A DNA stretch of 64,000 nucleotides, taken from Candidatus Woesearchaeota archaeon (lineage in GTDB: Archaea; Nanobdellota; Nanobdellia; Woesearchaeales; JAFGPW01). The position numbers and the translations under genes are program-made. The stretch's first letter is position 1. Each line of letters begins with the position of its first letter. This document shows positions 8,740 to 57,314 of this stretch, piece after piece. The stretch spans positions 152,752 through 216,751 of the forward strand of contig JAFGPW010000004.1 of the NCBI GenBank assembly GCA_016935985.1, written 5' to 3'. The notes under the pieces were generated by a model. It was given only the letters and a program-made list of their open reading frames with translations, ran no database searches and was not told where the DNA came from.

Positions 8740-8813
8740 TGGGAACGCGGGGATTTGAACCCCGGACCCCTACGTCTTCAGCGTAGTGCTCTCCCAGTCT
8801 GAGCTACGTTCCC
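8740..8813 (-). tRNA. tRNA-Phe (GAA)
   Basis: The reverse complement folds as a cloverleaf with acceptor GGGAACG/CGUUCCC, anticodon loop CUGAAGA, T-loop TTCAAAT and discriminator A. It is 74 nt long. Confidence 0.85.
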
Positions 8814-10833: not shown

Positions 10834-10982
10834 GGTAGGCTGCGTGTTTGCTGAGGGCTATATATTCTTTTCCCAAAGGGCGAGGGAGAGCGTGTGGATA
10901 AGGTTGTCCTAAAGTTTTATCACCATATAGGGACTACAAAATAGGAAGTTTTATATAGAAGATCTTCCTGCCCAACCCATCA

Positions 10983-20896: not shown

Positions 20897-21769
20897 ATGA
20901 GAATTATACTGAAGCGACGGGACATCGCAGCCATGCTGCTCGCTCTCACCGCACTCTTCCTGGTCCCCTCAGCCCCTGACGCCCTCGCCGCGGTCACGAA
21001 CATCACCTTCACGGTCCACCTCACGGTCGGCAACTATCCGCCGACAATCGATTGGATTGTCACTGTCCCCGCCCAGGACCCGACCGAAGCTGCCAACACC
21101 ACGTTCTACGTCTGGTACAACGTCTCCGATCCTGACGGCGCCGGAACCATCAACAACAACACCGCCGAGGTCGTGATCAACCGGTCCGGCGTCTCGCTCA
21201 CCGCGATCAGCTGCTCGAACGCCACGATCAACGGCACCATGCAGACAATCAACTGCACCATGGAGATCGAGTATTACCGGAACGCCGGCGGCTGGGACAT
21301 CAACGTCTCTATCAGGGACATCAGCTCGGCGTTCGCGAACGACACATCCAACTCCTTCACGTACAACATGCTCTCCGCGCTCTGGATGAACACGACTGCG
21401 ATTAGCTTCGGGAGCGTCAACATCGGCCAGACGAACGTCGCGCCGAACTCCTCTCTCGTGCTCAACAATACGGGGAACGTCGACTTCACCGAGGTCAACA
21501 TAACGGCGTACGACCTCGTCGGCTTCACGAACCCCAGCTACTCGATCGCAGCCGACAACTTCACCGTCCGCCTGAACGCATCGACCCTCGGCGGCGATGT
21601 TCTCGACAACGTGACGAACACGACGGTCACCGGCGCGACGGTGCCGCACGGCGCGCCGCCGGCATCGAACGAATCGCTCTGGATCTACATCAACCAGGTC
21701 CCCGGCGGCCTGATCTCGCAGGACTACAACACCACAAACTCTCTCGATTGGTGGGTCCTCGTCGGATAA
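20897..21769 (+). CDS. Secreted protein with a Sec signal peptide and about 20 N-x-S/T sequons in 290 aa (predicted heavily N-glycosylated surface protein)
   Basis: The signal peptide is MRIILKRRDIAAMLLALTALFLVPSAPDALAA. The sequon count was made by eye. Confidence 0.6.
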   Translation: MRIILKRRDIAAMLLALTALFLVPSAPDALAAVTNITFTVHLTVGNYPPTIDWIVTVPAQDPTEAANTTFYVWYNVSDPDGAGTINNNTAEVVINRSGVSLTAISCSNATINGTMQTINCTMEIEYYRNAGGWDINVSIRDISSAFANDTSNSFTYNMLSALWMNTTAISFGSVNIGQTNVAPNSSLVLNNTGNVDFTEVNITAYDLVGFTNPSYSIAADNFTVRLNASTLGGDVLDNVTNTTVTGATVPHGAPPASNESLWIYINQVPGGLISQDYNTTNSLDWWVLVG

Positions 21770-26505: not shown

Positions 26506-26618
26506 GGACCTGTAGCCCAGCCTGGATAAGGCGCCGGCCTTCTACGCGAGGATCGGAGCTCTCGGGCTCTCCTTGCAAAGAGAGCCGGAGATCGGGGGTT
26601 CGAATCCCTCCAGGTCCA
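26506..26618 (+). tRNA. tRNA-Arg (UCU) with a ~38-nt intron at the canonical 37/38 position
   Basis: Acceptor GGACCTG/CAGGTCC; anticodon stem CCGGC/GCCGG with loop C-U-UCU-A interrupted by the intron; T-loop TTCGAAT; discriminator A. A TATA box (tttataaa) lies ~30 nt upstream. Confidence 0.7.
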
Positions 26619-26673: not shown

Positions 26674-26799
26674 GCGGGGGTAGCCAAGCGGCTAAGGCGA
26701 TCGGCTGCAGAGCCGGTACCGCGATCGGTACGACGGGTCCTGCGGGACGATGACTGCGCTGATACCGATTATTCGGGGGTTCGAATCCCCCCCCTCGCT
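26674..26799 (+). tRNA. tRNA-Cys (GCA) with a ~53-nt intron at the 37/38 position
   Basis: Acceptor GCGGGGG/CCCTCGC (one G-U pair); anticodon stem ATCGG/CCGAT with loop C-U-GCA-G then the intron; T-loop TTCGAAT; discriminator U, the Cys identity element. An oligo-T tract follows. Confidence 0.65.
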
Positions 26800-26865: not shown

Positions 26866-28083
26866 ATGGACTGGCATCATCACAAGGAACTGGTCATGCT
26901 GCTCTTGTTCCTCATGGCGGCGTTCGTCCTCAGCGCGCTTGTCGTCATCCTCAAGGTGACCCCCGGTTATCTCGGCCATCTGGTCGCGGAAGGCGGCAAC
27001 ATGACGAGCTTGAACATCAGCCAGCGCGAGCAGGCCGCAAGCTGGGAGGGAGTGTATGGGAACATCAGCGTCGGCGGCAGCGCCATGAGCGTCTCGGTCG
27101 GAGGCGGCGCGATCCAGCGGGTCGACATCGTCACCGCTGACAGCGGATACGCGAACGGCTCATTCAATGTCTATGCCTCCAACCAGTCGAGCCTCGACTT
27201 CGCCTGTCTCGAGCCGGCGGCGCCGTCCGACGTGGACCTCCACCTCGGCGTGGGCGCCGGCAGCCTCGGCTCCGGCACCGGCACCTTCACCGCGCAGGCG
27301 CTCTTCATGGTCTATGGCCAGAACGCGAGCCACCTGCTCAACGCGACCCTCACAAACCCGCCATCGAGCGGGTTCTGGGAAGGCATCATGCGCGACAACA
27401 GCACCGGCAACCTCGTGTTCGTCGGGAAAGTGCTGCCCGCAGGCGTCGCCTACAACGGCGAGACCGTCAACTATCAGCTGCTGCTACCGGTGAGCCCCAG
27501 CGGGAACGACACATACCATTTCTTCCTCGACCAATACGGCTGCACCGAGGAGATCGAGATCGAGCTCGCCGACAACCTCATCTCGTTCGTGTGCAACCCT
27601 ACCGACCCGAACATCTCGGTGGTTCTCGCGCCGATCGACGGCGAGTACGAGTCTGCGCACCACTACGACGACGAGGACCCGATCGACCATTGGAAGGTCT
27701 ACAACCCGGCGCTGCCCGGCTGGGTCGTGCAGGACCTCGCGACGCTCAACAGCTCGATGGGATTCTGGCTCAAGATGAACGCCTCTGACAACCTGACCGT
27801 CACCGGCTCCATGACCGGGAATAAGTTCCAGCCTCTCGGACTCGACTACAACATGGTGGGCTATCCGACGACCGTGCCGATGGCGATTAACCTCTCGCTC
27901 GCGAGCATCGAGAACAACTACACATCGATCCACATGTACAACGCATCTGACACTGCGGACCATTGGAAGGTCTACAACCCGGCGCTGCCCGGCTGGGTCG
28001 TGCAGGACCTCACGCGGACGGTGCCGCACCAAGGGTACTGGATACGCATGAACCAGACCGAGGTCTGGGAGATTATGTGGTGA
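26866..28083 (+). CDS. N-terminally membrane-anchored surface protein with two ~50-aa repeats of the form (S.H.YNA.D.ADHWKVYNPALPGWVVQDL...G(F/Y)W(I/L)(R/K)MN)
   Basis: A TATA box (gatttaaata) ~30 nt upstream, a leaderless ATG, an N-terminal hydrophobic segment MLLLFLMAAFVLSALVVIL, and repeats at aa ~265-315 and ~355-405. Confidence 0.6.
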   Translation: MDWHHHKELVMLLLFLMAAFVLSALVVILKVTPGYLGHLVAEGGNMTSLNISQREQAASWEGVYGNISVGGSAMSVSVGGGAIQRVDIVTADSGYANGSFNVYASNQSSLDFACLEPAAPSDVDLHLGVGAGSLGSGTGTFTAQALFMVYGQNASHLLNATLTNPPSSGFWEGIMRDNSTGNLVFVGKVLPAGVAYNGETVNYQLLLPVSPSGNDTYHFFLDQYGCTEEIEIELADNLISFVCNPTDPNISVVLAPIDGEYESAHHYDDEDPIDHWKVYNPALPGWVVQDLATLNSSMGFWLKMNASDNLTVTGSMTGNKFQPLGLDYNMVGYPTTVPMAINLSLASIENNYTSIHMYNASDTADHWKVYNPALPGWVVQDLTRTVPHQGYWIRMNQTEVWEIMW

Positions 28084-29398: not shown

Positions 29399-30049
29399 GT
29401 GCGGCCTCTCCTGCTCATCACGATCATGCTCCTCATCACCGCCTGCGCCGCCAGCGTCGCTCTCAGCCAGGGCCTTCCGCTCGGCGTATCCCTCTTCATT
29501 ATTGGCGCGAACCAGACCGAATTCGACTTCGATCTCGACTGGAACCTCGCCTCGCTCCAGATCATCCCCAACGACACGAACGTCTCACGCATGCTCACGC
29601 CCATCCTCGGCAAGTACATCTCGGTCCATTACTACAACGCGACCGACATGGCGGACCACTGGAAGGTCTACAACCCGAGCCTGCCAATATGGGTCACCCA
29701 GGACCTCACGAATCTCGATGAGAAGAAGGGATTCTGGATACGGATCAACGAGTCGGTCAACCTGACCGTCAACGGATCGCAGAACTCATACAACGATATC
29801 CCGATACAGCCCGACTGGAACATGGTCGGCTACCCATCCCTCTTCAAGAGGAACGTTACGGTCGCGCTCACATCAATCTGGGGGAATTTCAGCTCAGTCC
29901 ATATGTACAACGCGACCGACATGGCGGACCACTGGAAGGTCTACAACCCGGCGCTGCCCGACTGGGTCGTGCAGGACCTCCTTTGGTTGGTTCCCAAACA
30001 CGGCTACTGGATAAGAGGAAACGACACGGACACATGGAGGGTGGAATAG
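29399..30049 (+). CDS. Secreted protein with two DHWKVYNP(A/S)LPxWVxQDL repeats and multiple N-x-S/T sequons
   Basis: A GTG start gives the signal peptide MRPLLLITIMLLITACAASVALS. Repeats occur at aa ~75-125 and ~160-210. Confidence 0.55.
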   Translation: MRPLLLITIMLLITACAASVALSQGLPLGVSLFIIGANQTEFDFDLDWNLASLQIIPNDTNVSRMLTPILGKYISVHYYNATDMADHWKVYNPSLPIWVTQDLTNLDEKKGFWIRINESVNLTVNGSQNSYNDIPIQPDWNMVGYPSLFKRNVTVALTSIWGNFSSVHMYNATDMADHWKVYNPALPDWVVQDLLWLVPKHGYWIRGNDTDTWRVE

Positions 30050-30217
30050 GTGAGATGATGGGGCGCTCCTGAAACTGCAGGATGAGGGATTCCTCGCGGT
30101 TGCAATCGGCCTCGTCGCTGCAGTGGCGTGCGCTGTGCCCCCAATCCCTAGGGAGATGTACCGGCAAGCCGCCGAGGAAGATGGATATGATGGTGAGAGC
30201 ACATGAGAGATGACCAC

Positions 30218-30739
30218 ATGAGCAAAGCAGTGGCCCTGCTGGCGATCGCGCTCCTCGCGGCTCCTGCAGCGGCCGCGGTGCCGCCGATAGCGATGGAGAT
30301 TTATGGCGGGATCACGATCGACGGCGAGGACGCGATCGAAGGGATCCTCGTAGAGGCGTACGGCGAGGACGGCCGGCTCTGCGGCCGGTTCGTCGTCGAA
30401 GTGCCGGGAAAATACGGCCTGCTCTCCTGCAATGCCGACGATCCCGACACCGAGGAGGACGAGGGAGCGTCGCCGGGCGAGGCGATCGTGTTCAGGATCA
30501 ATCGGCAGGCGGCCGTCGCTGAGCGGCAGGTCCTCTTCGAGGCAGGAGAGTTCGCTGAGGTGAGGCTTGCCGCGTCGCTCCCTGACGGCCAGCAGCCGTT
30601 TATGGAGGTGCCGGCAGACGATGAGGGCGGCGCGCCATGGAAGACCATCTTCGTCGCGATCATCGTCGTCCTCGCCCTCATCGTATGGAACAAGCGGCTC
30701 GAGCTCCGGATAAAGGATCTCACCAGGAAACGCGAATGA
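30218..30739 (+). CDS. Secreted, C-terminally anchored protein carrying the shared N-terminal module (IYGGITIDGEDA..GRFVVEVPGKYGLLSCNAD..EDEGASPGE)
   Basis: Signal peptide MSKAVALLAIALLAAPAAAA; a C-terminal TM helix plus a basic tail; the stop overlaps the next start (ATGA). Confidence 0.6.
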   Translation: MSKAVALLAIALLAAPAAAAVPPIAMEIYGGITIDGEDAIEGILVEAYGEDGRLCGRFVVEVPGKYGLLSCNADDPDTEEDEGASPGEAIVFRINRQAAVAERQVLFEAGEFAEVRLAASLPDGQQPFMEVPADDEGGAPWKTIFVAIIVVLALIVWNKRLELRIKDLTRKRE

Positions 30740-33666
30740 GGAAGAGCAGCTCACAGCGGACCGTGCAGGCGATCTTGGTAGCAGTCGCCCTCATCATGGT
30801 CATGCGTCTCGCCTCGGCGGTGCCGCCGATACCTGCGTCCTTCTCAGGAACGCTCACCATCGACGGCGCGAACGCGCCTCCCGGCACGAACGTATCGGCG
30901 TTCGACCCCGACGGCGTGATGTGCGGCCAGTTCATCTCCACTGTCGTCGGCTTCTACGGCCTGCTCGACTGCGAGGGCGACGACACGGACACCGGCCCTG
31001 ATGAGGGAGCCGAGGACGGCGACACGATAACATTCTACGTCGACGGCGACCTCGCGGACGCCGTCGGGAGCACGACCTGGACCGCAGGAGGGTTCCCGGT
31101 GGCGAACCTGAACGCGCAGAACGACCCGCCGACGATTTCGTCGATATCCGGGCTCTCGGGGACCGTGCCGGCAGGCTCCCTGCAGACCGTCGACTCGGTG
31201 ACGAGCGACCCGAACCCGACCTTCGGGACTAAGGACCAGGTGCGGCTCATCATCTGCACGACGAACTCCGCGTCTGACGGCTCCGGCTGCGACGCCGCGA
31301 CCGTCTGTAGCGGCGCGCTCGCCGCCGACGACCCGAGCTGCTCATTCAACGTCGAAGGCAGCACCGGCTCCTGGACGCGCTACGTCTTCGCCATGGACGA
31401 GCACGACGAGGTCTCGCTCTCATCGCGGCAGCTCACCTATTCGACCGACGGATCGCCGCCCTCGATCACGGGCATCACGCCGACGAACAACTCCTGGCAG
31501 AACGCGACCCCGCTCCCGCTCAACGTCAACACCGACGAGAACGGCTGGTGCAAGTACGACTTCGCCGTGGGGATCGCGTTCGCGGCTAAGGCGAACCTCA
31601 TGACCGGCGGCGGGTCATCGGCCCACGATGGCAACGTCGCGCTCGCGCCGGGGAACAACGATTTCTACATCCAGTGCAACGACACTTTCGGCAACGTCAT
31701 GGCGCTCGCCGACGAGGTCCACCACCGCCTCCGGTACGATGACGCTAACCCCACCTCCGGCGGCGCGACCGTGTGGATCGACGGCGGCGACCCGAACAGC
31801 ACGATCGGGAACGTCTACGTCAACTGGACTGGCTTCACCGACGCGCAGTCGGGCATCATGGGCTACTACTACAACACCGCCAACAACCAAGGAACGATCG
31901 GCGGGACCTACACCGCGAACACCTTCGCGAGCATGGCCCTGCCTGAGGGCGCGGCGCCCGCGGTCTACGTCTGGCCGATTGACATTTCCTATCGCATCGG
32001 AAACGCCGCGTCAGACACCATCATGGTCGACCTTACCCCACCCACCCTCTCCAATTGGGCGGAATCGCCGCCTGACCTCAACTCGAGCTCACCCGAGAAC
32101 TTCACCGTGTCGGTGACCGCGGCAGATGCGGTCTCAGGCCTCAACGGCAGCCCCCAGCTGCGGTACCGCAGGGGGAGCTACGACTCCTCATACACCTCCT
32201 GGCAGACGATGTCAGGCGCCGGCCCCTCTTACAGCCATACCATCCCGCAGCCGACCGGCGGCTGGTTCACGATCATCGACGAGTATGTCTATTACCAGGT
32301 CAGGGTCTGGGACCGCGTCGGTTGGAACCAGACGACCGGCATCCTCTCCGAGCGCGTGAACCGCATGAACTACCCGCCGGTCTTCGACGCGATCGGCAAC
32401 AAGGTCGCCCAGGAGGACGAGCTCATCTGGTTCTATATCCATGCTGCCGACAACGACAACGACACGCTCGCCTTCACGAGCAACCTCTCCGTCCTTTCCA
32501 TCGCCACTGTGAATCGGACCACCGCGAACGTCAGCTGGACGCCCGGCTACGCGTACAACGGCGACAACCATATCTATTTCACCGCGGATGACGGGACCGT
32601 CGCCGTGAACTCCTCGACGGTCAACATCTGGGTGAACGCGACGAACGATGCCCCTGTGCTCGCAACGATCGCTGACCAGACCGTCTACGTGCACGAGGAG
32701 CTGAGCATCCAGGCCATGGCGACCGATGAGGACAACGAGACGATCACCTATCATCAGGATCCCGGCTCGAGGAGCGTCTTCAGAATCGATCCGGCGACAG
32801 GGTGGATCAACTTCACCGCGCTCCTCGGCTATGTCGGACGCCGGAACGTCACCATCTACGCCTCCGACGGGAAGGTCAACGACTCCGAGAACTTCACGCT
32901 CACAATCTACTACTGCGGAGATGACATCTGCAACACGAACGAGAACTGCTCGTCCTGCCCGCAGGACTGCGGCAGCTGCAGCTCCCAGCGCCCTGACCGG
33001 CTCGCCATTGTCATCCAGCCGCGCAACTGCCTGAACCAGACCATGCTCATCAAGGTGTATGACATGACGGTGCGTGCGAACTGCACGACGATGGGGCTGA
33101 TCTATGAGGGCTATGAGGTGTGCGGCAACCTGAGCGATGTCGGGCTCACCATCTCCATCAAGGACGAGGGAACCGGCACCTACAACGAGAGCGCGGAGCT
33201 CTCCACCGACGATCTCGGCGAGGCGACATTCACGCCGATGATCCCCGGCCACTATCGGATCGTCGCGAAGAAGTCGGACTATCCCGACACCCTGATGCAC
33301 TTCGAGGCCGACTACTGCTACGCCAACGAGACGCTCAACGAGACGACGGCGCCGGCGGCCGTGAACCAGACCGGCGAGCCCACGACGGAGCCCGCCACGA
33401 AGCCGCCGGAGACCGAGGGGCCGGAGGAGGTTCTCCCCAAAGAGGAGACGAGCCTCTTCCTCTTCATCCTGTACTATGTCATCATCCCGATACTCCTCCT
33501 CTCGCTCTTCACCGCGAGCGCCTGGTACTACCAGAAGGAGAAGGACAACAGCATCGCGATCCTGAAGGCTCGGATATCGGTGAAGCGCCAGTACCTCGTG
33601 CTCGCGAAGTACGCCGAGTACTACTGGCACCTGCTCCTCGAGAGGATCGGGCTCGGCAAGAAATGA
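30736..33666 (+). CDS. Large (976 aa) secreted surface protein: shared N-terminal module, a long beta-rich N-glycosylation-rich region, a Cys-rich segment (YYCGDDICNTNENCSSCPQDCGSCSS), a Thr/Pro-rich stalk, and a C-terminal TM anchor
   Basis: Signal peptide cleavage after ASA; the shared module FSGTLTIDGANAP..GQFISTVVGFYGLLDCEGD..PDEGAEDGD; C-terminal LFLFILYYVIIPILLLSLFTASAWYY. Confidence 0.65.
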   Translation: MRKSSSQRTVQAILVAVALIMVMRLASAVPPIPASFSGTLTIDGANAPPGTNVSAFDPDGVMCGQFISTVVGFYGLLDCEGDDTDTGPDEGAEDGDTITFYVDGDLADAVGSTTWTAGGFPVANLNAQNDPPTISSISGLSGTVPAGSLQTVDSVTSDPNPTFGTKDQVRLIICTTNSASDGSGCDAATVCSGALAADDPSCSFNVEGSTGSWTRYVFAMDEHDEVSLSSRQLTYSTDGSPPSITGITPTNNSWQNATPLPLNVNTDENGWCKYDFAVGIAFAAKANLMTGGGSSAHDGNVALAPGNNDFYIQCNDTFGNVMALADEVHHRLRYDDANPTSGGATVWIDGGDPNSTIGNVYVNWTGFTDAQSGIMGYYYNTANNQGTIGGTYTANTFASMALPEGAAPAVYVWPIDISYRIGNAASDTIMVDLTPPTLSNWAESPPDLNSSSPENFTVSVTAADAVSGLNGSPQLRYRRGSYDSSYTSWQTMSGAGPSYSHTIPQPTGGWFTIIDEYVYYQVRVWDRVGWNQTTGILSERVNRMNYPPVFDAIGNKVAQEDELIWFYIHAADNDNDTLAFTSNLSVLSIATVNRTTANVSWTPGYAYNGDNHIYFTADDGTVAVNSSTVNIWVNATNDAPVLATIADQTVYVHEELSIQAMATDEDNETITYHQDPGSRSVFRIDPATGWINFTALLGYVGRRNVTIYASDGKVNDSENFTLTIYYCGDDICNTNENCSSCPQDCGSCSSQRPDRLAIVIQPRNCLNQTMLIKVYDMTVRANCTTMGLIYEGYEVCGNLSDVGLTISIKDEGTGTYNESAELSTDDLGEATFTPMIPGHYRIVAKKSDYPDTLMHFEADYCYANETLNETTAPAAVNQTGEPTTEPATKPPETEGPEEVLPKEETSLFLFILYYVIIPILLLSLFTASAWYYQKEKDNSIAILKARISVKRQYLVLAKYAEYYWHLLLERIGLGKK

Positions 33667-42486: not shown

Positions 42487-42558
42487 GCCCTTGTAGCTCA
42501 GTGGTAGAGCGTCTGCCTCGTAAGCAGAAGGTCGGGGGTTCGATTCCCTCCAAGGGCT
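42487..42558 (+). tRNA. tRNA-Thr (CGU)
   Basis: A cloverleaf with acceptor GCCCTTG/CAAGGGC, D-arm GCTC/GAGC, anticodon loop CTCGTAA, T-loop TTCGATT and discriminator U. It is 72 nt long. Confidence 0.85.
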
Positions 42559-46817: not shown

Positions 46818-48029
46818 TCACTCATACCGCAGCGCGTCGACCGGCTGCTGCCTGGATGCCTGCATCGCGGGAAGCACGCCGGAACCCGCGCCGACGACGA
46901 AGGCGAAGAGGATGCAACCGGCGGAGAGGTACCAAGGGAAAATCGGCTGGAGCGCGGAATAGCCGACCGCGGCGGCGATCGCGCCGGCAGCCGAGGAGAC
47001 CAGGTAGCCGGAGAGGACGCCGAGGACGCCGCCGATCATGCCGAGGACGCCTGCCTCGAAGATGAAGATGAAGAGGATATCCTCGTTCCGCGCGCCAATC
47101 GCCTTCATGATGCCGATCTCCTTGGTCCGCTCGAGGACGGCGGTGTACATAGTGTTCATGATGTTGACCGAGGCCACGACAACCGAGATGAGGGCTATCA
47201 GGATCAGCATGCCGACGATCACGTCGATCACCGTCCCGAAGGTCTCGAGGAGGTCCGCGTAGGTCTGGACATAGAAGGACTCTTTCCCCACATCCTCGCC
47301 GCGGCGCTTGCGCAGCTTGTCCTCGATGGTCTTGGCGAGCCCTTCGGGATCCGTGCCCTTGTCCGCCTCGATCAGCGCGTAGCCGAACTTGTCCGCCTTG
47401 TCCGGGAACATGCTCTCGAACATATCGAAGGAGAGGTAGACGTTCCCGTCGTCCTGAGGGTTGCCCACTTCCTCGTAGAACCCGACGATGGAGAATGGCT
47501 CGCCGTTAATCTCTACCCTCTCACCGAGCCGCAGCCCGCGCTTGAAGATCTTGTCATCGAGGAGGTAGTTGTAGCCGAGCACCACATTGTTCATGTCGCC
47601 GTCCTCGAGATTCCTGCCCTTGTCTACCTTGACCGTCATCGCCCGGTCGATGAAGTCGATGCTATCCGGGTCGAGGCCCGCGATGAAGTTATAGGCCTTC
47701 TCCTTGCCGGAGACGATCTCGCCGACGCCCATGTACATCCCGGTGGCCTGCGAGACGCCGTTGATGCGCTCGACGAAGTCGAGATCGGCCCCGGTCACGT
47801 AGAAGTTCGTGTCCATCCCAGGGGCGGCCGCGCCCTTCGACATCAGGAAGAGCATGCTCGCCCCCGCCTCGTCGGCGAGGGTGTTGACATAGTTGTTGAT
47901 GCCGAGGCCGAACGAGATGAGGGCATAGATTGCCATCACGCCGATGAGGATGGAGAGGACGGTGAGGAAGCTCCGCGTCTTGCGGTGCACGAGGTTCTGC
48001 AGGGAATAGCGCATCTCGTCGGCTCTCAT
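46818..48029 (-). CDS. ABC transporter permease, FtsX/MacB-like (N-terminal TM helix, large extracytoplasmic domain, three C-terminal TM helices)
   Basis: Topology and the conserved C-terminal FtsX region (IGIMKAIGARN...). Confidence 0.75.
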   Translation of the reverse strand: MRADEMRYSLQNLVHRKTRSFLTVLSILIGVMAIYALISFGLGINNYVNTLADEAGASMLFLMSKGAAAPGMDTNFYVTGADLDFVERINGVSQATGMYMGVGEIVSGKEKAYNFIAGLDPDSIDFIDRAMTVKVDKGRNLEDGDMNNVVLGYNYLLDDKIFKRGLRLGERVEINGEPFSIVGFYEEVGNPQDDGNVYLSFDMFESMFPDKADKFGYALIEADKGTDPEGLAKTIEDKLRKRRGEDVGKESFYVQTYADLLETFGTVIDVIVGMLILIALISVVVASVNIMNTMYTAVLERTKEIGIMKAIGARNEDILFIFIFEAGVLGMIGGVLGVLSGYLVSSAAGAIAAAVGYSALQPIFPWYLSAGCILFAFVVGAGSGVLPAMQASRQQPVDALRYE

Positions 48030-49255
48030 TTGACGAACCTCAGCGCGTCGACCGGCTGCATGCGGGACGCCTGGAGCGCAGGGACGATGCCTGCGGAAAG
48101 GCCGATGACGAAGGAGAAGATGAGCGCTCCCAATATGAGCATCGGGCTCACGTTCGCCTGGATGAGGTCAAACCCGAAGGCCGCACGCCCGGCCGCCGCC
48201 CCGCCGTAGGCGAGGAGCATGCCGAGCAGGATGCCGATGAGGCCGCCGACCATGCCCATCAGGCCTGACTCGATGGCAAAGAGCGAGAAGATCACCGAGT
48301 TCTTCGCGCCGATCGCCTTCATGATGCCGATCTCCCGGGTGCGCTCGAGGACGGCGGTGTACATCGTGTTCGTGATGCCGATGCCGCCGACGACGAGGGA
48401 GATCGACGCGATGATGTAGACGAAGAGCTGGATAGCGAACAGCGTCGAGTTGAGCGACTCGATCGCGTTCTGGGGGGATTCGACCGTGAAGTCCTCCTCG
48501 CCCTTCTTCACGCTCCGCTCCTTCCTGAGGACCTTCTCGATGTCCTCCTTGACGCGGTCCATCCTTGAGACGTCCTGGACCTTCACGCCGAGGATGTTGA
48601 TGTCGTCGCGGCTCCCGTTCCTGAAGAGGTCGAGCATGACATCCTCTTCCATCACCACGATGTTGTCGAAGAGGAAGCTCCCCTTCTTCTCCATGATGCC
48701 GACGACCTCGAACGGTCTGCCGCTGATGAGCACGCGGTCACCGGCATTGATGGGCTTGCCGAACGCGTCGCTCGAAAGGAAATTGTTGCCGAGCAACACA
48801 AGGTAGGTGTCGCCTTCCTTGAGGAGGCGTCCCTGCACCACCTTCATGTTGATCATCGTCTCGACAAGCTTGCGGTTCTTCCCGCCGGGCATCGACATGG
48901 CGTATCCGATGCCCTGGACGTCGTTGAACTCGAGCGTGCCGCTCTCGACGTAGCGGGGGATGACCGCCTCGACGCCGTTCACCCCCTCGATCGGCTTGAT
49001 GAGGTCCTCGGTGAGCGGCTCGACGACGCCGATGCCCGGCGGGCCCGCGAAGTCGAGCCCCTGCGCGCGCACTGAGAGGACGTCGGTGCCGAGGAAGCCG
49101 AACTGGGCTGAGATCGCGGTGCGTAGTCCCTCGCCGAGGCCGATGAGCCCCACCACCGCGGCGATGCCGATGAAGATGCCGAGCATGGTCAGCCAGGAGC
49201 GCAGTCGCCGCCTCGTGATGTTCGCGAGCGACATGAGGAGGTAGTCCTTGAGCAT
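48026..49255 (-). CDS. ABC transporter permease, FtsX/MacB-like (paralog)
   Basis: The same architecture (IGIMKAIGAKN...) and a 4-nt overlap with the downstream permease. Confidence 0.75.
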   Translation of the reverse strand: MLKDYLLMSLANITRRRLRSWLTMLGIFIGIAAVVGLIGLGEGLRTAISAQFGFLGTDVLSVRAQGLDFAGPPGIGVVEPLTEDLIKPIEGVNGVEAVIPRYVESGTLEFNDVQGIGYAMSMPGGKNRKLVETMINMKVVQGRLLKEGDTYLVLLGNNFLSSDAFGKPINAGDRVLISGRPFEVVGIMEKKGSFLFDNIVVMEEDVMLDLFRNGSRDDINILGVKVQDVSRMDRVKEDIEKVLRKERSVKKGEEDFTVESPQNAIESLNSTLFAIQLFVYIIASISLVVGGIGITNTMYTAVLERTREIGIMKAIGAKNSVIFSLFAIESGLMGMVGGLIGILLGMLLAYGGAAAGRAAFGFDLIQANVSPMLILGALIFSFVIGLSAGIVPALQASRMQPVDALRFVK

Positions 49256-49305
49256 CTCTCAGCACCGGGGCATGATGGAGGGGAAAAGAAAGGAAAGGGG
49301 GATGG

Positions 49306-50565
49306 TCACTTCTTCATCCCGTTGTGGTTGCGCCGCTTCTTGCGCCAGCGCCGCCAGAGCACGAAGCCCACGACGAGCACCACGACGACGCCGAGGTAGA
49401 TACCGACACCGCTCTTTTGGACGAGGCCGTACTGCTCCAGCTGCTCCGCCGTGTAGAGCGGGACCTTGAGCTCCACCCGCATGGAGTATTCCTTGTTGTT
49501 CGGGTCGAGGTAGGTCACCTGGAGGGGGAGCGTCACCGCGCCGGAGGCCGCCTTCTCGATGTAGAGGTCGAAGTCAGCGGTCTCGTAGTCATCGGAGTCA
49601 ATGTTGCCGAGGTAGAGCTCGGTGGGCGAGAAGACCTTGTAGAGGTCTGACCCTTCGAGCACGACGTTGACGAACTTGACGTCCGAGAGCCCGCGGTTGA
49701 CGAACTTGACCGTGACCTCTCCCTTCGAGCCGGAAGATCGGATGTCTGTGGTGTCGAGGATGACCGAGAGGTCGGGCGTGCTCCCCACCACGAGACTCGT
49801 CACCGCGGCCATGGTGTAGTCCTCGCCGTCCATGTCGCTGTAGGTGATGGCGACGGGGATCTTGTAGACGCCGGAAGCGGCGTCAGATTCCGCGATGAGC
49901 TTGAACTCGACCGCCTGCTCCTTGCCGGGGTCGAGCCGCTTGATGACCTTCTCGTTCGTCGAGTCGACCGGCGCGAACGGCACGTCAGTGCCCGAGAGCC
50001 CGAGGGAGACCTTGATGTCCTTGAGGCCGGTCCCGACCATGTTCTTCAGCCGCATGGAGACGTCGACCGTGTCGCCGGGGGAGACATGGGAGGGGTCTGC
50101 GGTGACGTCGACAATCGAGATGACGGCGTTCGATGAGCCGACCCTGACGTCGAAGTCGTCGGTGGGGTGCCAGATGTCGTCAGCCCCCTTCTTGTACCTG
50201 AGGCTGAGCTTGGAGATCCCGTCGATCGCGTCGGCATCGACCCTGAGCCGGTAGGCCATGATGGCCTCCTGGTCCTCGTCCGCGCTCGCTCGGATCGACC
50301 CGTAGTAGCGCATCGCCGAGGCGCCGGGATCGAGGGAGAATGGATAGTTGTATATGAGCTCGAAGCTCACGTCCTCCGCCTGCTGCGTGCCGACGTTCTC
50401 GATCAGGAACCTGACGTCGACGTAGCCGCCGGGCTCCGCCGGGAAGGGGTCCTGGTTGAGCAGGGTGACCGTGAGCTTCGATGCTGTCGGGGTCGCCCCG
50501 AACGCCGGCACGATGCCTATCATCATCATGACTGTCAATGCCATCGCGAATGCTGTCTTACGCAT
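49306..50565 (-). CDS. Secreted, C-terminally anchored protein built of repeated beta-sandwich (CARDB/COG1361-like) domains
   Basis: A signal peptide MRKTAFAMALTVMMMIGIVPAFGA; three to four ~100-aa repeats with alternating hydrophobic beta patterns; a C-terminal TM helix plus RRWRKKRR. Confidence 0.6.
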   Translation of the reverse strand: MRKTAFAMALTVMMMIGIVPAFGATPTASKLTVTLLNQDPFPAEPGGYVDVRFLIENVGTQQAEDVSFELIYNYPFSLDPGASAMRYYGSIRASADEDQEAIMAYRLRVDADAIDGISKLSLRYKKGADDIWHPTDDFDVRVGSSNAVISIVDVTADPSHVSPGDTVDVSMRLKNMVGTGLKDIKVSLGLSGTDVPFAPVDSTNEKVIKRLDPGKEQAVEFKLIAESDAASGVYKIPVAITYSDMDGEDYTMAAVTSLVVGSTPDLSVILDTTDIRSSGSKGEVTVKFVNRGLSDVKFVNVVLEGSDLYKVFSPTELYLGNIDSDDYETADFDLYIEKAASGAVTLPLQVTYLDPNNKEYSMRVELKVPLYTAEQLEQYGLVQKSGVGIYLGVVVVLVVGFVLWRRWRKKRRNHNGMKK

Positions 50566-51298
50566 GTGATTCACCTCGTCTGCTGGTGGGATTCGATGAG
50601 TGTGCATGGTTGTTCTTGGTGTCCTTGACGATCGCGCCGTCCTTCAGGTAGACCACCCGGTCGGCGTATTTCGCCAGGTTCTGGTCGTGCGTGACCATGA
50701 TGATCGTCTTGTGCTTCTCGCGGTTGAGCTTCTTCATGAACTCCATCACGTTGATGCCGGTCTTGGAGTCGAGGTTGCCGGTCGGCTCGTCGGCGAGGAT
50801 GACGTCGGGGTCGTTCACGAGCGAACGGGCGATCGCGACCCGCTGCTGCTGCCCGCCGGAGAGCTCGGTCGGCTTGTGGCCTATCCGGTCGCCGAGCCCG
50901 ACGAGCTCGAGCACTTCCCGCGCCTTCACGATGCGCTCCTCGTGCGGGACGTCCTGGAATGTCATGGGAAGCATCACGTTCTCGAGCGCCGTGAGCGTCG
51001 CTATCAGGTTGAAGTTCTGGAAGATGAAGCCGATTGTCTGGCCGCGGATCTGGGCGAGGTCGGACTCGTCCATCTCGGAGATGTCATCGCCGTTGAGGAA
51101 GATATGCCCTTCGGTCGGGATGTCGAGGCAGCCCACCATGTTCATCATGGTCGACTTGCCGCTGCCCGACGGGCCTTCGATCACGAGGAACTCGCCGGGA
51201 TAGATATCAAGGTTAGCATTGCAGACTGCCATCACATTGACCTCTCCCATCTGGTAGGTTTTGCATACGTCCTTGAGCCTGATGATCGGGTGCGCCAT
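50558..51298 (-). CDS. ABC transporter ATP-binding protein (MacB/LolD-like)
   Basis: Walker A GPSGSGKST, the signature LSGGQQQRVAIARSL, Walker B ILADEPTGNLD and an H-loop. Confidence 0.85.
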   Translation of the reverse strand: MAHPIIRLKDVCKTYQMGEVNVMAVCNANLDIYPGEFLVIEGPSGSGKSTMMNMVGCLDIPTEGHIFLNGDDISEMDESDLAQIRGQTIGFIFQNFNLIATLTALENVMLPMTFQDVPHEERIVKAREVLELVGLGDRIGHKPTELSGGQQQRVAIARSLVNDPDVILADEPTGNLDSKTGINVMEFMKKLNREKHKTIIMVTHDQNLAKYADRVVYLKDGAIVKDTKNNHAHSSNPTSRRGESHA

Positions 51299-51303
51299 GA
51301 TTC

Positions 51304-51786
51304 TCACATCCTCTCGATTTTCGCTTGCATCTCCTTCATGATGGCATCGAACCTCATCAGCTGCGTGTAGTAGTCGGTGATGATCTGGAGCTTCTTGCGC
51401 TCGATATCGGTGAGCTTCGCCTTTCTCGCGCTCTCGATGATGGGGGGGATGGTCCGCTTCGCCGGCTCGATGAAATGGGCAGTGAAGGCGTCCATCTTGC
51501 TGCGCAGGAGGGTAGGCAAATCGCTCTCTATATGATAGTAGACCTTCTTCGATCCCGGCCTCTTGGTCCGCTGGACCTGGCCGATGCTCTCGAAGAGCTT
51601 GAGCTTGCTCGAGACCGAGGCGAGAGAGTAGCCGGTCCGCTCCGCGAGCTCGTGTATCGATATCTCCCCCGGTTCCAGGAACAGTACGCCGACGAGCTTC
51701 GCGCCGAGCATATCCATGCCGAAACTCCTGAAAACCTGGATGATGAAATCCTGGAACTCCTTCTCGAATGCCGCCATTTTCACCAT
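51304..51786 (-). CDS. Winged-helix transcriptional regulator (MarR/TrmB-like) heading the ABC operon
   Basis: An HTH region (ISIHELAERTGYSLASVSSKLKLFESIGQV) followed by a wing (RTKRPGSKKVYY). Confidence 0.55.
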   Translation of the reverse strand: MVKMAAFEKEFQDFIIQVFRSFGMDMLGAKLVGVLFLEPGEISIHELAERTGYSLASVSSKLKLFESIGQVQRTKRPGSKKVYYHIESDLPTLLRSKMDAFTAHFIEPAKRTIPPIIESARKAKLTDIERKKLQIITDYYTQLMRFDAIMKEMQAKIERM

Positions 51787-51930
51787 TTATCGAATTTTCA
51801 GTATAATCTGGATATGATGATTATTGAGGTATATAAAGGTTATGAAAGGACATACAGTTTTCAGTATTGAAAACAATCCATGCCGCAGCCACCGTAAAGA
51901 ATAAATAGTGCAGAGCCGTTCGCGGGCAGA

Positions 51931-54496: not shown

Positions 54497-54853
54497 TCAC
54501 ACCTCCCGCGGGCCCTCGTCGGTCATCCCGACGAGGCGGAACCCGACACCGAGCCGCATCACCGCCGAGAGCACCGCCATATGCTCCTTCCCGGTGCCGC
54601 TCGCGAGGTTGATGCCGACCTCAGTTCCGAGGACCCGGCCTTTGAGCGCCTTGCGGATGTCATCGACGAGCGCGGGCAACGGCTTTGAGGGGTCGATGAT
54701 CACGAGCGTCACGCTCTTGCCGCTCGAGAACTTCTCTTTTCCGAACTCGTTCGTGATCAGGAATATCTGGTCCCACCCGATGCCGTCGATCACCCGGGCG
54801 ACGTCGCCCCAGGTGCCCTTGCCGGTCGAGAGGCAGGCGATGAGGTCGGTCAT
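54497..54853 (-). CDS. Hypothetical 118-aa protein
   Basis: An ORF in an operon-like array with the HD and acidic-repeat genes; no motif recognised. Confidence 0.35.
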   Translation of the reverse strand: MTDLIACLSTGKGTWGDVARVIDGIGWDQIFLITNEFGKEKFSSGKSVTLVIIDPSKPLPALVDDIRKALKGRVLGTEVGINLASGTGKEHMAVLSAVMRLGVGFRLVGMTDEGPREV

Positions 54854-54925
54854 GGGGCCGGATAGTGAAGGGGATTATATAAAAGTTTAGAATAGGGAAA
54901 AAGGAGAAAAAAAGGAAGAAGGGGT

Positions 54926-56050
54926 TCAGCGGACCCCGAGCCTGCGGCACTCCGTCTTGACGTCGTCCTCGTAGTCCTCGGCGTCCTCGAGGTCATCCTC
55001 GAGATCCTCGAGGTCATCCTCGAGATCCTCGAGATCCTCTTCCTCATTGTCGAGGTCATCCTCGGCGCTCTCGAGCTCATCCTCGGCGTCCTCGAGGTCA
55101 TCCTCGAGGTCGCGGATCTCGTCGGCGTCAGTCGCGTTCGCGAGCAGCGCCTCGATCCCCGAGACCTCGTATTCCCAGTAGTTCACGTCGTCCTGGGCAG
55201 CATCGATGTCTTCCTCCTGGTCCTCAATGTCGTCCTCGGTGGTGTCGATGTCGTCCTCGAGGTCCTCGACAAGCTGACCGGCGTCGCGGATTGCCTGCGG
55301 GCAGGCCGCTGCGGTGAGCTCGGAGACGGTGAGGTAGGCCGCCGTCCCGCTGGCGCCGGGCGAGGTGTAGCCGCGCTCGAGCACCTTGCAGACCGCCTCG
55401 ATGTCGTCGATCAGGTCCTCCTGGTCCCCGATGTCGTCCTGGATGTCATCGAGGTTGTCCTCCTCGTCCTCCAGATCGTCCTCCAGATCGTCGAGCTCGT
55501 CCTCCCACTCCTCGAGGTCGTCGCGGAGCCGCTCCCGCTCGTCGGGGTCGGTCTCGTTCGCGAGCAGCGACTGCAGGCGGCCAATCTCATCCTCGGCGTC
55601 CTGGATGTCGCGCTCGATGTCCTTGATGTCGTCCTTGGAAGTGTCCTCGTCGTCCTCGAGGTCCTCGAGGTCGTTCTCGGCGTTCCTCAGCTCCTGGTCG
55701 CAGTTGACGGCGGTGAGCGTGAGCTCCTCGCCGCGGTAGGTGATGATGGTCTGGGAAGGGATGTCCGATTCCTCCTCAGGCTCTTCTTCTTCCTCAGGCT
55801 CCTGGAAGGGGACTGGCTCCTGCTCTTCAGGCTCCTCCTCAGGCTGCGCAGCGAAGACCTCATACTTCACCACGGTCGGCTGCTGCGTGTACTGGAGCTG
55901 CGAACCGGTCGGCATGGTCGTTACGTACGAGCCGGTGACCGAGGCTGTCCCGCCCTCGAACTCGAGCAGCTGCTGGACCGTGAAGTAGCCGAGGCCCAGC
56001 ACGATGATTATCAAAATGACCAACAGAATCGTCAAGAGTGCTTTCTTCAT
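54926..56050 (-). CDS. N-terminally membrane-anchored, extremely acidic repeat protein (LEDLEDD/DDLEDxEDEL repeats; internally duplicated ~115-aa module containing a Cys and a LLAN(E/A)TD(P/A)DE motif)
   Basis: A TM helix MKKALLTILLVILIIIVLGLGYF followed by >45% D+E. DNA-level tandem repeats gaggtcatcctcgagatcctc are visible. Confidence 0.5.
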   Translation of the reverse strand: MKKALLTILLVILIIIVLGLGYFTVQQLLEFEGGTASVTGSYVTTMPTGSQLQYTQQPTVVKYEVFAAQPEEEPEEQEPVPFQEPEEEEEPEEESDIPSQTIITYRGEELTLTAVNCDQELRNAENDLEDLEDDEDTSKDDIKDIERDIQDAEDEIGRLQSLLANETDPDERERLRDDLEEWEDELDDLEDDLEDEEDNLDDIQDDIGDQEDLIDDIEAVCKVLERGYTSPGASGTAAYLTVSELTAAACPQAIRDAGQLVEDLEDDIDTTEDDIEDQEEDIDAAQDDVNYWEYEVSGIEALLANATDADEIRDLEDDLEDAEDELESAEDDLDNEEEDLEDLEDDLEDLEDDLEDAEDYEDDVKTECRRLGVR

Positions 56051-56140
56051 TGTTCATCCACCCCTAAGTGTTGATGCCAGGCCGGATACACGCTCCTGTC
56101 ATATATAAATTTTACTATTTTAAAGAAGTAAAAAATCTGG

Positions 56141-56741: not shown

Positions 56742-57314
56742 ATGTTCTCCCTCGCCGAGACCATCGACCTCGTCATCATGACCGTGTTCGTTGGATTCAT
56801 CTTCTCAGGGGTCTTCACGCGTCCTGACCGCCGCGAGCTCGATGTCATGGCGATGTACCGGAAGCGGCGTTTCGACTGGGACGGCTTCACGACCGCGGTC
56901 ATCATCACCGCCCCCGCCATAATCCTCCATGAGATGGGGCACAAGTTCGTCGCGATCGGCTTTGGCCTGAACGCGGTTTTCCACGCCTCCTACACCTGGC
57001 TTGGCCTCGGCGTGCTGCTCAGGCTCCTCAATTTCGGCTTCATCTTCTTCGTCCCCGGCTACGTCTCGATACCTCTTCTCGGAAGCCCGCTCCAGCACGC
57101 GGCAATCGCGTTCGCAGGCCCAGGCATCAACCTGCTCATCTGGCTCATCGCGTTCGCCGTGCTCAAGTCAGGGGTCTCGCTCTCGCGAAACGGAAGGTAT
57201 ATCCTCACGGTCACCAAGCAAATCAACCTCTTCCTCTTCTTCTTCAACATGATCCCGATCCCGCCGTTCGACGGGTTCTCGGTCTTCTCGTCGCTGTGGC
57301 GCGCGGTCGCCTGA
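56742..57314 (+). CDS. Small intramembrane metalloprotease, peptidase M50 (S2P)-like
   Basis: HExxH in a TM helix (ILHEMGHKFVA), a downstream ligand Asp (FFNMIPIPPFDG), and TATA-like boxes at ~56680 and ~56712. Confidence 0.6.
   Translation: MFSLAETIDLVIMTVFVGFIFSGVFTRPDRRELDVMAMYRKRRFDWDGFTTAVIITAPAIILHEMGHKFVAIGFGLNAVFHASYTWLGLGVLLRLLNFGFIFFVPGYVSIPLLGSPLQHAAIAFAGPGINLLIWLIAFAVLKSGVSLSRNGRYILTVTKQINLFLFFFNMIPIPPFDGFSVFSSLWRAVA

Follow-up and report, generated by a model that had tools for sequence, protein, structure and literature searches.

A hyper-acidic, membrane-anchored protein of a Woesearchaeota archaeon with two predicted cysteine-bracketed helical hairpins, and its DPANN relatives

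A gene on the minus strand of a 64,000-nucleotide stretch of DNA from a Candidatus Woesearchaeota archaeon (contig JAFGPW010000004.1 of the assembly GCA_016935985.1; the whole stretch is called the window hereafter) encodes a protein with a net charge of -115, which is referred to here as the hairpin protein. It is regarded as a type II membrane-anchored DPANN surface protein that would carry two clasped helical hairpins and act as a polyanionic, cation-binding rod or spacer, and for this description, taken as a package, the chances are considered to be about even. The coordinates of the gene and of its features are collected in Table 1.

The argument begins with the heptad register of the two modules, each of which consists of two helical arms joined by a tip. 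In all four helices the heptad phase is single and unbroken, and strong hydrophobic residues occupy one a/d phase in 9/10, 12/15, 11/15 and 11/12 cases, respectively, a pattern that is far beyond chance. When the four helices are pooled, position a is hydrophobic in 91% (14 Leu, 10 Ile and 3 Val) and position d in 81%, which bears out the coiled-coil-like character suggested in an earlier note on this DNA, written from the sequence alone. The acidic residues are distributed over the other positions, with Glu in 22/33 at e, Asp in 20/33 at f, Asp or Glu in 24/33 at g, Asp in 17/33 at c, and Glu or Asp in 19/33 at b. An AlphaFold2 model, for which a nine-sequence family alignment served as input (the true residue number is the model number plus 1), reached a mean predicted local distance difference test (pLDDT) score of 78, with values of 93-98 in the helices (93-97 in module 1). 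The loops of this model land on N165-E-T-D and N305-A-T-D, the loop of tip 1 comprising residues 166-168, and a small beta-hairpin at residues 101-112 lies ahead of module 1. According to the register and the model, each module is very probably an antiparallel two-helix coiled coil, that is, a hairpin, with a modelled length of about 7 nm for module 1 and about 7-9 nm for the hairpins.

The four Cys residues of the protein are found on heptad positions d, a, d and a. The core layers of an antiparallel coiled coil are a-d' pairs, so that the positions of Cys117/Cys221 and Cys250/Cys368 are those required for a disulfide that links the arms where each hairpin is open; the two pairs probably form such clasps, although this is proposed with less confidence than the fold. 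The earlier note had counted a single Cys per module, and this has to be corrected, as there are two, which bracket the module at core heptad positions. The LLAN(E/A)TD motif that it had noticed is present at residues 162 and 302 and corresponds to the hairpin tip and to an N-x-T sequon, which it had missed. In both modules the sequon Asn is located four residues ahead of the midpoint of the Cys pair, and it may be N-glycosylated, again at a lower level of confidence; it is possible that tip 1 carries a C-cap/N-cap box. Measured between Cys and tip positions, both arms of module 2 are one heptad longer than those of module 1, with 56 instead of 49 and 60 instead of 53 residues, and the insertion in arm A is visible as a 7-residue gap when the two modules are aligned. 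Since the modules differ by exactly one heptad on each arm, the arm lengths appear to be constrained to match, and because the heptad was added to both arms the Cys residues stay in register.

Ahead of the modules, the protein has a single N-terminal transmembrane helix, as the earlier note had stated: the Kyte-Doolittle hydropathy in 19-residue windows reaches its maximum of 3.0 at residues 5-23, and no second hydrophobic segment was found in the protein by the same measure. The anchor is preceded by MKK, with flank charges of +3 on the N side and -2 on the C side, and because of this MKK and of the net-negative flank that follows the anchor, the positive-inside rule predicts an N-in/C-out, type II orientation. 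The acidic domain, for which the earlier note had considered both sides of the membrane, is thus predicted outside. A location of the ectodomain outside the cell can be strongly inferred from the positive-inside rule, the lipobox anchors of homologues, the sequon-rich linkers and the paired Cys residues. Asp and Glu account for 36% of the whole protein, 39% of the part past the anchor, and 48% and 52% of the interior of modules 1 and 2; the figure of more than 45% that had been given for everything after the transmembrane helix therefore holds within the modules and is too high for the ectodomain as a whole. The stalk that connects the anchor to the first module is predicted to be disordered and contains the Pro/Glu-rich tract PEEEPEEQEPVPFQEPEEEEEPEEE (residues 69-95), and Pro-rich linkers are found at the equivalent place in the relatives P0001, P0004, P0005 and P0008, which are introduced below. 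Between the modules, residues 229-260 have an Asp+Glu content of only 6%. The short basic tail past the last Cys follows a recurrent C-x-R-(L/F)-G pattern, being CRRLGVR here, CRNFGVR in P0009, and CRSFGITS and CQRFGFKE in other relatives.

Table 1. Position, strand and basis of the features of the hairpin gene and its surroundings (positions in the window; residues of the hairpin protein)
Feature	Position	Strand	Details
Hyper-acidic hairpin gene, complete ORF	54926..56050	-	374 aa + stop
Archaeal TATA-like box TTTATATA	56102..56109	-	~52 nt 5' of the hairpin-gene ATG
Purine-rich GGGGTGGA	6-13 nt upstream of the hairpin-gene ATG	-	
T-rich tract directly past the hairpin-gene stop	54893..54925	-	Stem + T-run
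TATA box of the next gene (118 aa, 54497-54853)	54876-54883	-	
N-terminal signal-anchor / transmembrane helix, residues ~4-25	55976..56041	-	Maximum of 19-residue Kyte-Doolittle hydropathy; AlphaFold2 helix 2-30
Predicted disordered stalk, residues 26-99	55754..55975	-	AlphaFold2 pLDDT <50 at ~31-98
Module 1: Cys117(d) - predicted helix 117-165 - tip - predicted helix 169-227 with Cys221(a)	55388..55702	-	AlphaFold2, heptad register
Predicted hairpin tip 1 LLANETDPDERE, residues 162-173, N165-E-T sequon	55532..55567	-	
Neutral, predicted flexible inter-module linker YTSPGASGTAAYLTVSELT, residues 228-246	55313..55369	-	AlphaFold2 pLDDT <50 at ~227-240
Module 2: Cys250(d) - predicted helix 247-305 - tip - predicted helix 309-370 with Cys368(a)	54947..55303	-	AlphaFold2, heptad register
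Predicted hairpin tip 2 LLANATDADEIR, residues 302-313, N305-A-T sequon	55112..55147	-	
Short basic C-terminal tail RRLGVR past the last Cys	54929..54946	-	
21-nt periodic DNA for (LEDLEDD)n, module 2 arm B	54975-55106	.	6.3 copies, 79% matches (Tandem Repeats Finder)
Weaker 21-nt arrays	55203-55269, 55457-55522, 55590-55679		Tandem Repeats Finder

The same architecture recurs in other DPANN proteins, although their recognition required more than a similarity search. An exhaustive phmmer/HMMER search of 1.84 billion representatives returned 22 hits with E <= 1e-3, none of them with E <= 1e-10 (all were >= 9e-10), and about half were unrelated repeat or coiled-coil proteins, such as P0006 and the tail-fibre-like P0002, P0014 and P0021 (P and L numbers denote proteins and loci). 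Word-indexed searches, whether started from the protein, from the family alignment or from an alignment of lower acidity, gave almost no matches, as they were swamped by low-complexity acidic words, and no close relative was found in two metagenome scans. Since E-values alone are untrustworthy, family membership was judged by architecture and synteny. In this way, the architecture was recognised in P0001, P0003, P0004, P0005, P0008, P0009, P0010, P0011, P0023 and P0025, in ORFs of L037, L078 and L018, and in paralogues beside P0009 (L005) and P0005 (L004), so that the homologue search proposed in the earlier note did yield DPANN relatives of the same architecture, some of them syntenic. What is called here the DPANN family of Cys-bracketed helical hairpins was defined from P0001, P0003, P0004, P0005, P0008, P0009, P0011, P0025, L037 and the L005 and L004 paralogues. 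The database labels are Candidatus Nanoarchaeia for P0005 and Woesearchaeota for P0025. P0010 (L086, 133-597) and P0023 are single-module acidic lipoproteins in a bacterial context, beside YbeY and RNase T; their kinship with the archaeal module may be distant, or the resemblance may be convergent.

The common architecture, into which the window protein fits, comprises an anchor or a lipobox signal peptide at the N-terminus, a linker rich in Pro, Thr, Gln and Glu, and one to three Cys-bracketed modules. Lipobox signal peptides take the place of the transmembrane anchor in P0004 (LVSC), P0010 and P0023 (LTSC/LSAC) and L078 (LSGC), and the linkers are often rich in sequons, with 6-8 of them in the L005 and L004 paralogues. 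The Cys-to-Cys length is 93-118 residues in 21/24 modules, the others measuring 123, 128 and 175 residues, and a sequon is located within seven residues of the midpoint of the Cys pair in 18/24 modules, compared with 1.5 expected from shuffles. The N-terminal Cys occupies heptad position d in 16 of 22 modules and the C-terminal Cys position a in 17 of 22, where chance would give about 3 each. The four Cys residues of the window protein align with those of P0001, and the AlphaFold2 model of the three-module P0005, with an Asp+Glu content of 25%, contains three hairpins with their loops at N149, N285 and N417. An elaborated tip is seen in P0009 (L005, 6001-7435, 7388-10137 region), where the hairpin tip has four extra Cys residues; past this gene lie its paralogue and then a polymorphic-toxin/immunity cluster (YD-shell, colicin D, colicin immunity, barstar and ribonuclease).

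Synteny adds to this picture. The order SecDF, CTP synthase, M50 protease, (FKBP) and hairpin gene is shared by the window (L003) and L001, and by L004 from the CTP synthase onward, and the conservation of the order from CTP synthase to the hairpin gene supports orthology; orthologues with 22-33% identity retain both module size and synteny. This gene order was not found at P0003, P0009 and P0004, and the P0003 locus keeps part of it, with the MTS methyltransferase and the gene of a 118-residue protein (described below) close by.

At the DNA level, the minus-strand open reading frame (ORF) 54926-56050 is a real, separately transcribed gene. Its guanine-cytosine (GC) contents at the three codon positions (GC1/2/3 of 0.73/0.29/0.87) are typical of the genes of the window, the high GC3 being in line with the neighbouring genes, and the protein was also called on the Logan contig SRR13394437_646088. 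The overlapping plus-strand ORFs, rich in Ser and Arg, have GC1/GC2 values of 0.21/0.77, compared with approximately 0.6/0.4 in the real genes of this region, and because of these aberrant values they are spurious, as had been suspected. The exact octamer TTTATATA, which forms the TATA-like box of the hairpin gene, occurs six times in the window versus 0.03 times expected by shuffling (at 10950, 20822 and 38971 on the plus strand, and at 51830, 54876 and 56102 on the minus strand); all six copies precede the start of an ORF on their own strand by 20-200 nt, and the octamer is the sharply defined TATA box of this genome. The hairpin gene is its own transcription unit, since it has its own box, its stop codon is followed by a T-rich tract, which is likely an archaeal oligo-T terminator, and the next gene has a separate box. 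A scan for bacterial sigma-70 promoters is inapplicable to this archaeal window.

The internal duplication described in the earlier note is confirmed by an identity of 48% over 73 residues between the homologous modules 1 and 2, and the DNA that encodes the tips is 89% identical over 35 nt, in copies 420 nt apart. The DDLED/EDLEDD tandem repeats that it had described in the DNA are real as a periodicity of 21 nt, which corresponds to one heptad and, at 54975-55106, runs on the unit that the note had quoted, and not as exact copies: exact tandem repetition within the gene is limited to 2 x 21 nt and 2 x 12 nt, and most copies are just 62-79% identical. The idea of a locus that is likely to vary in length does not agree with the degenerate DNA repeats, the conserved module length in relatives and the matched arms, and an assembly artefact of a repeat is unlikely in view of distant syntenic orthologues with the same architecture. 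The combined alternative, in which the locus would be a contingency or length-variable locus generated by slippage, or a collapsed or mis-assembled repeat, or in which the opposite strand would hold the real gene, could appeal to the 21-nt periodicity and to the two exact 21-nt and two exact 12-nt copies. It is nevertheless highly improbable, considering the divergence of most copies, the heptad-matched arms of both modules, the module size and synteny of the orthologues and the aberrant codon-position GC of the opposite strand.

The acidity of the hairpin protein is exceptional in its genome and in its family. It is by far the most acidic protein of the window, where its Asp+Glu content of 36% compares with 24% in the protein next in rank and with 12.7% on average, and the most acidic known member of the family. 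A halophile-type acidic proteome was rejected as the source, since the 56 ORFs of the window average 12.7% Asp+Glu and 11.7% Lys+Arg, many of them having an isoelectric point above 9; because the neighbouring proteome is not halophilic, the extreme acidity is specific to this protein. An artefact of GC content was rejected as well, given that the L001 orthologue contains 34% Asp+Glu at a GC content of 38%, to be compared with 36% at 62% in the window. The arms of the window protein reach charges of -20 and -34, and in the relatives that were examined every arm is net negative except three, with charges of 0 or +2, arm B being usually the more acidic. As a separate observation, several plus-strand ORFs (in 20897-21769, 26866-28083 and 29399-33666), one of them encoding 1009 residues, have N-terminal hydrophobic segments, a Lys+Arg content of 3-6% and isoelectric points of 4.1-5.1; their sequences suggest that they are candidate envelope or surface-layer (S-layer) proteins, and that the whole surface proteome may be acidic.

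If the preferred reading holds, a disordered, Pro/Glu-rich stalk of about 70 residues outside the membrane would bear two tandem rods, in each of which a strict a/d stripe would form the hydrophobic seam, a disulfide between Cys(d) of arm A and Cys(a) of arm B would staple the open end, and the N-x-T of the closed tip would serve as an N-glycosylation sequon, as a helix-capping box, or as both. Because nearly all b, c, e, f and g positions are Asp or Glu, the ectodomain, with its net charge of about -115, would form a tethered polyanion. The rods would coat the outer face of the membrane with a layer of negative charge that condenses counter-ions, able to bind and buffer cations such as Mg2+ and Ca2+ and to act as an electrostatic and steric spacer of the envelope; in this role the protein would be comparable to teichoic acids or to coiled-coil spacers of the envelope. 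This function of a tethered polyanionic rod layer, with cation buffering and envelope spacing, is suggested by the composition of the protein, and it is put forward tentatively, as a proposal that falls somewhat short of probable. Since both arms are strongly acidic and Asp-rich, the folding and stiffness of the rods would be expected to need charge neutralisation by cations. A bolder version, which is regarded as unlikely, is a cation-gated "acid zipper", in which the clasped hairpins would be disordered polyanions at low divalent-cation activity and would zip up into stiff rods about 8 nm in length once Mg2+ or Ca2+ neutralised the carboxylates at e, g, b, c and f.

Several points weigh against this interpretation. 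Extreme acidity is not conserved, the net charge of the relatives ranging from -4 to -78 (from -4 to -115 with the window protein), so the core function of the family may be unrelated to cation binding, and all relatives are named "hypothetical" in the databases. Folds that bind Ca2+ (EF-hand, calsequestrin, RTX and the like) are absent from the Pfam output at E <= 0.1 and from the NCBIfam output at E <= 0.01, and these searches brought up no motif specific for Ca or Mg either. AlphaFold2 is largely blind to charge repulsion, and two arms charged -20 and -34 may need counter-ions or a basic partner in order to pair. Organisms of the Woesearchaeota type are mostly anaerobes, in which the formation of extracellular disulfides is unproven, and the N-x-[ST]-D tip could equally be pure helix capping, with Asn as C-cap and Ser, Thr or Asp as N-cap, rather than a glycosylation site.

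The difficulty of pairing two acidic arms leads directly to an alternative in which the arms, like the acidic half of an acid/base coiled-coil pair, dock onto a basic helical partner, either in the S-layer or envelope of the organism itself, a presumed episymbiont, or on its host cell, so that the protein would be an adhesin or anchor and not a cation sink. Positions e and g are almost exclusively Glu or Asp, an arrangement that disfavours acid-acid pairing and favours helices rich in Lys and Arg; moreover, the protein is predicted to be at the surface, DPANN archaea depend on cell-cell contact, and a sub-threshold similarity to the stalk of SEC10/PgrA surface-exclusion proteins recurs in the family. 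This alternative is nonetheless doubtful, because no basic coiled-coil partner was seen among the predicted secreted proteins of the window (those with an N-terminal hydrophobic segment, with isoelectric points of 4.1-5.1), the adjoining genes are housekeeping genes, and the Cys bracket, the tip at mid-point and the matched arms argue that the acidic arms pair with each other. These geometric features are also what would be expected of a passive strut that spaces the S-layer from the membrane, in the manner of Lpp or SlaB, and whose hyper-acidity is neutral or a solubility-driven drift of the lineage: what the family conserves is geometric, namely the length of the modules, the Cys bracket, the tip and the Pro-rich stalk, the charge varies from -4 to -115, and modelled rods of about 7-9 nm on a flexible stalk would fit envelope spacing. 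On the other hand, orthologues from genomes with 38% and 62% GC both contain at least 34% Asp+Glu, and all arms but three (0 or +2) are net negative in the relatives, which suggests selection for negative charge; since evidence for an S-layer-binding domain is also absent, a purely passive strut is considered unlikely.

Two further alternatives have still lower standing. The neighbourhood of SecD/SecF, CTP synthase, M50 protease and FKBP, conserved together with the hairpin gene, could be taken to indicate an extracytoplasmic polyanionic chaperone or holdase for exported proteins, given the SecDF and FKBP neighbours and the fact that poly-Asp/Glu tracts can serve as folding enablers. Such a role is very unlikely, considering that the FKBP is of the cytoplasmic SlyD type and has its own transcription unit, that the hairpin gene has its own TATA box, that P0003, P0009 and P0004 lack this neighbourhood, and that the only hydrophobic surface is the a/d seam, with none left for binding clients. 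The remaining proposal places the acidic domain in the cytoplasm, where the paired Cys residues would bind metal, for example in a Zn or Fe-S site formed on dimerisation, and no disulfides would exist; there are exactly two conserved Cys residues per module and thus four per dimer, and the organism is probably anaerobic. Against this stand the positive-inside rule, which puts the N-terminus inside, the lipobox anchors and sequon-rich linkers of homologues, which point to export, and the Cys residues that face each other in an a/d core layer of one and the same hairpin, and the proposal has hardly any probability left.

In comparison with known families, the hairpin protein stands apart. Neither with the window protein nor with eight relatives did any Pfam or NCBIfam model reach its cut-off; the models that scored at all were generic coiled-coil ones, and for the window protein curated coiled-coil families remained below their thresholds (28.4 versus 36 for TPR_MLP1_2, and 51.7 versus 567 for SMC_prok_B). 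A profile search of the PDB found only tropomyosin, the dynein stalk and SMC, at E-values of 3e-6 or weaker, and Foldseek searches with the models of the window protein and of P0005 returned nothing at E <= 1e-3. Literature searches that covered surface proteins of DPANN archaea, coiled coils, hairpins of helices and disulfides found the hairpin family nowhere described. Among the candidates that were tried, the hairpins of TolC and of membrane-fusion proteins and the tektins were rejected, with Foldseek E-values >= 0.02 and template-modelling scores <= 0.32, and PspA/ESCRT-III, FliJ and the CT398 hairpin were likewise rejected, having only isolated matches below the cut-off. A type IV pilin-like protein with a class III signal peptide was also considered: by eye, MKK-A-LLTI of the window protein fits the loose motif, but the relatives, whose N-termini read MANTKNTIL (P0003), MSKTAIAI (P0009) and MNKTALMI (L037), do not, and no pilin-like globular domain is present in the AlphaFold2 model of the hairpin protein.

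The most consistent sub-threshold profile match was that to SEC10/PgrA (PrgA; TIGR04320), at 43.9 bits for the window protein and 36.9, 32.8 and 24.4 bits for others, where the cut-off is 70. These are surface proteins with a long stalk formed by an antiparallel helical hairpin, whereas the window protein lacks the CAP-like head, the LPXTG motif and the Gram-positive context, and the likeness is that of generic coiled coils. Lpp, the SlaB stalk of Sulfolobales and the tetrabrachion stalk of Staphylothermus resemble the hairpin protein in that a small anchor bears a rod-like coiled coil that projects from the membrane into the envelope, and a structural or spacing role is likely to be common to all of them. 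However, these known rods associate in parallel as trimers or tetramers, lack Cys clasps and are not hyper-acidic, while the hairpin rods would be intramolecular and antiparallel, bracketed by Cys(d)-Cys(a') and with a sequon at the tip, and no similarity in sequence or profile was found. A spacer of the Braun lipoprotein (Lpp) type in the strict sense was rejected, since the window protein has no lipobox, is predicted to form antiparallel hairpins and ends in RRLGVR instead of Lys.

Other resemblances concern single properties. Acidic leucine zippers (Fos-type, ACID-p1/E-coil) share the Leu at a/d together with Glu or Asp at e/g, and hence an electrostatically costly self-pairing; they are parallel and intermolecular, with about 30-35 residues and a basic partner strand, in contrast to the hairpin arms of about 50-60 residues, which are both acidic and are joined by the tip and probably by a disulfide. 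Calsequestrin, acidic biomineralisation proteins and teichoic acids are comparable in carboxylate density (48-52% Asp+Glu in the modules), and teichoic acids also in the predicted extracytoplasmic, surface-tethered position. The hairpin protein differs from these polyanionic cation binders in having neither a thioredoxin-like fold nor homology to them, in carrying its acidity on a strict heptad scaffold, and in that its cation binding is only inferred. The helix-turn-helix held by inter-helix Cys pairs recalls the CHCH twin-CX9C proteins and the plant alpha-hairpinins, which have helices of 15-25 residues, two disulfides and CX9C or CX3C spacing, while the hairpin module has a single Cys pair, 93-128 residues apart, at its open end and neither of these motifs. 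Finally, the Pro/Glu-rich extended segment (69-95) after an N-terminal signal anchor is similar to the Pro-Glu/Pro-Lys linker of TonB, but the resemblance is one of composition, as there is no C-terminal TonB domain and no Pfam match. In kind, the hairpin protein belongs with the membrane-anchored coiled-coil proteins of cell envelopes, of which it is a variant, with as yet no evidence for a new mechanism.

The value of these findings lies mainly in the definition of the module. DPANN archaea have tiny genomes, most of them rely on contact with host cells, and their envelope proteins are almost wholly uncharacterised. The gene delimits a recognisable module of the form Cys(d)...tip N-x-S/T...Cys(a) around an antiparallel coiled coil, which occurs once to three times per protein, is carried by a Pro-rich stalk, lies outside Pfam and NCBIfam, and could be used to annotate "hypothetical" surface proteins in Woesearchaeota and Nanoarchaeia. 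The copy in the window, with its charge of -115, offers a convenient test case for whether folding depends on counter-ions and for whether the protein acts as a cation buffer or as a spacer. Should the function be merely structural, the gain would be a modest one in annotation; cation-gated folding, if true, would represent a new principle in the archaeal envelope, and the DPANN episymbiont would possess a surface cation reservoir and an ion-responsive spacer, in a previously undescribed family of archaeal envelope proteins.

Among the neighbouring genes, the one directly downstream (54497-54853, minus strand) encodes a protein of 118 residues with invariant G-[TS]-G-K-E-H-M-A and MTDLIA motifs, for which at least 553 relatives confirmed by tblastn, with a best identity of 68%, were found in DPANN genomes (Woesearchaeota/Nanoarchaeia). 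The best 80 of them come nearly all from genomes labelled Woesearchaeota, Nanoarchaeota or Nanoarchaeia, or from metagenome-assembled genomes labelled "uncultured Methanosarcinales". Together with the labels of P0005 and P0025, this places the window in a DPANN archaeon. Even a 34-sequence profile gave no match in Pfam, NCBIfam or the PDB, the best being DciF at E = 0.27, and the protein, small and apparently cytoplasmic, is widespread in DPANN archaea. As an operon partner of the hairpin gene it was rejected, since a gene of the hairpin family immediately precedes it at no loci other than the window, L001 and L037, and the two have separate TATA boxes; the box of the 118-residue gene is just about 23 nt from its ATG, which suggests a leaderless transcript. 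In the GTDB records named "uncultured Methanosarcinales archaeon" (L009-L011, L013, L014 and others), this gene is present at 55-65% identity on contigs of about 34% GC, and the organism labels of these assemblies may be unreliable.

On the other side, a membrane protein of about 190 residues of the M50/site-2-protease type, with HEMGH and PFDG motifs, is encoded at 56742-57314 on the plus strand (the ORF is listed from 56400). Its gene is divergent from the FKBP and hairpin genes and has the same position in L001 and L004. Site-2 proteases cleave type II single-pass proteins, and no link between this protease and the hairpin protein was established. A few kilobases from the hairpin gene, in the window (46818-51786, minus strand) as well as in L001 (11334-16341), a conserved cluster encodes a TrmB-like regulator, an ABC ATPase, an unassigned protein of 413-433 residues and two permeases of the MacB/FtsX type, which probably reflects shared gene order and not a functional link.

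With a GC content of 62% (GC3 of 0.8-0.94), compared with 32-50% in ten related DPANN loci that were measured and that carry the same genes (compare L001, L004, L006-L009 and L037), the organism of the window is unusually GC-rich for its DPANN group. The gene content includes ORFs resembling RFC, Topo VI and ABCE1 by their N-terminal sequences, as well as the M50 protease, the FKBP and the MTS methyltransferase assigned by Pfam. Two adjacent tRNA genes of 113 and 126 nt contain introns (26506-26618 and 26674-26799, plus strand), and ordinary tRNA genes are located at 8740-8813 (minus strand) and 42487-42558 (plus strand). The archaeal origin of the window is indicated by the tRNA introns, the TATA-type promoters and the gene content.

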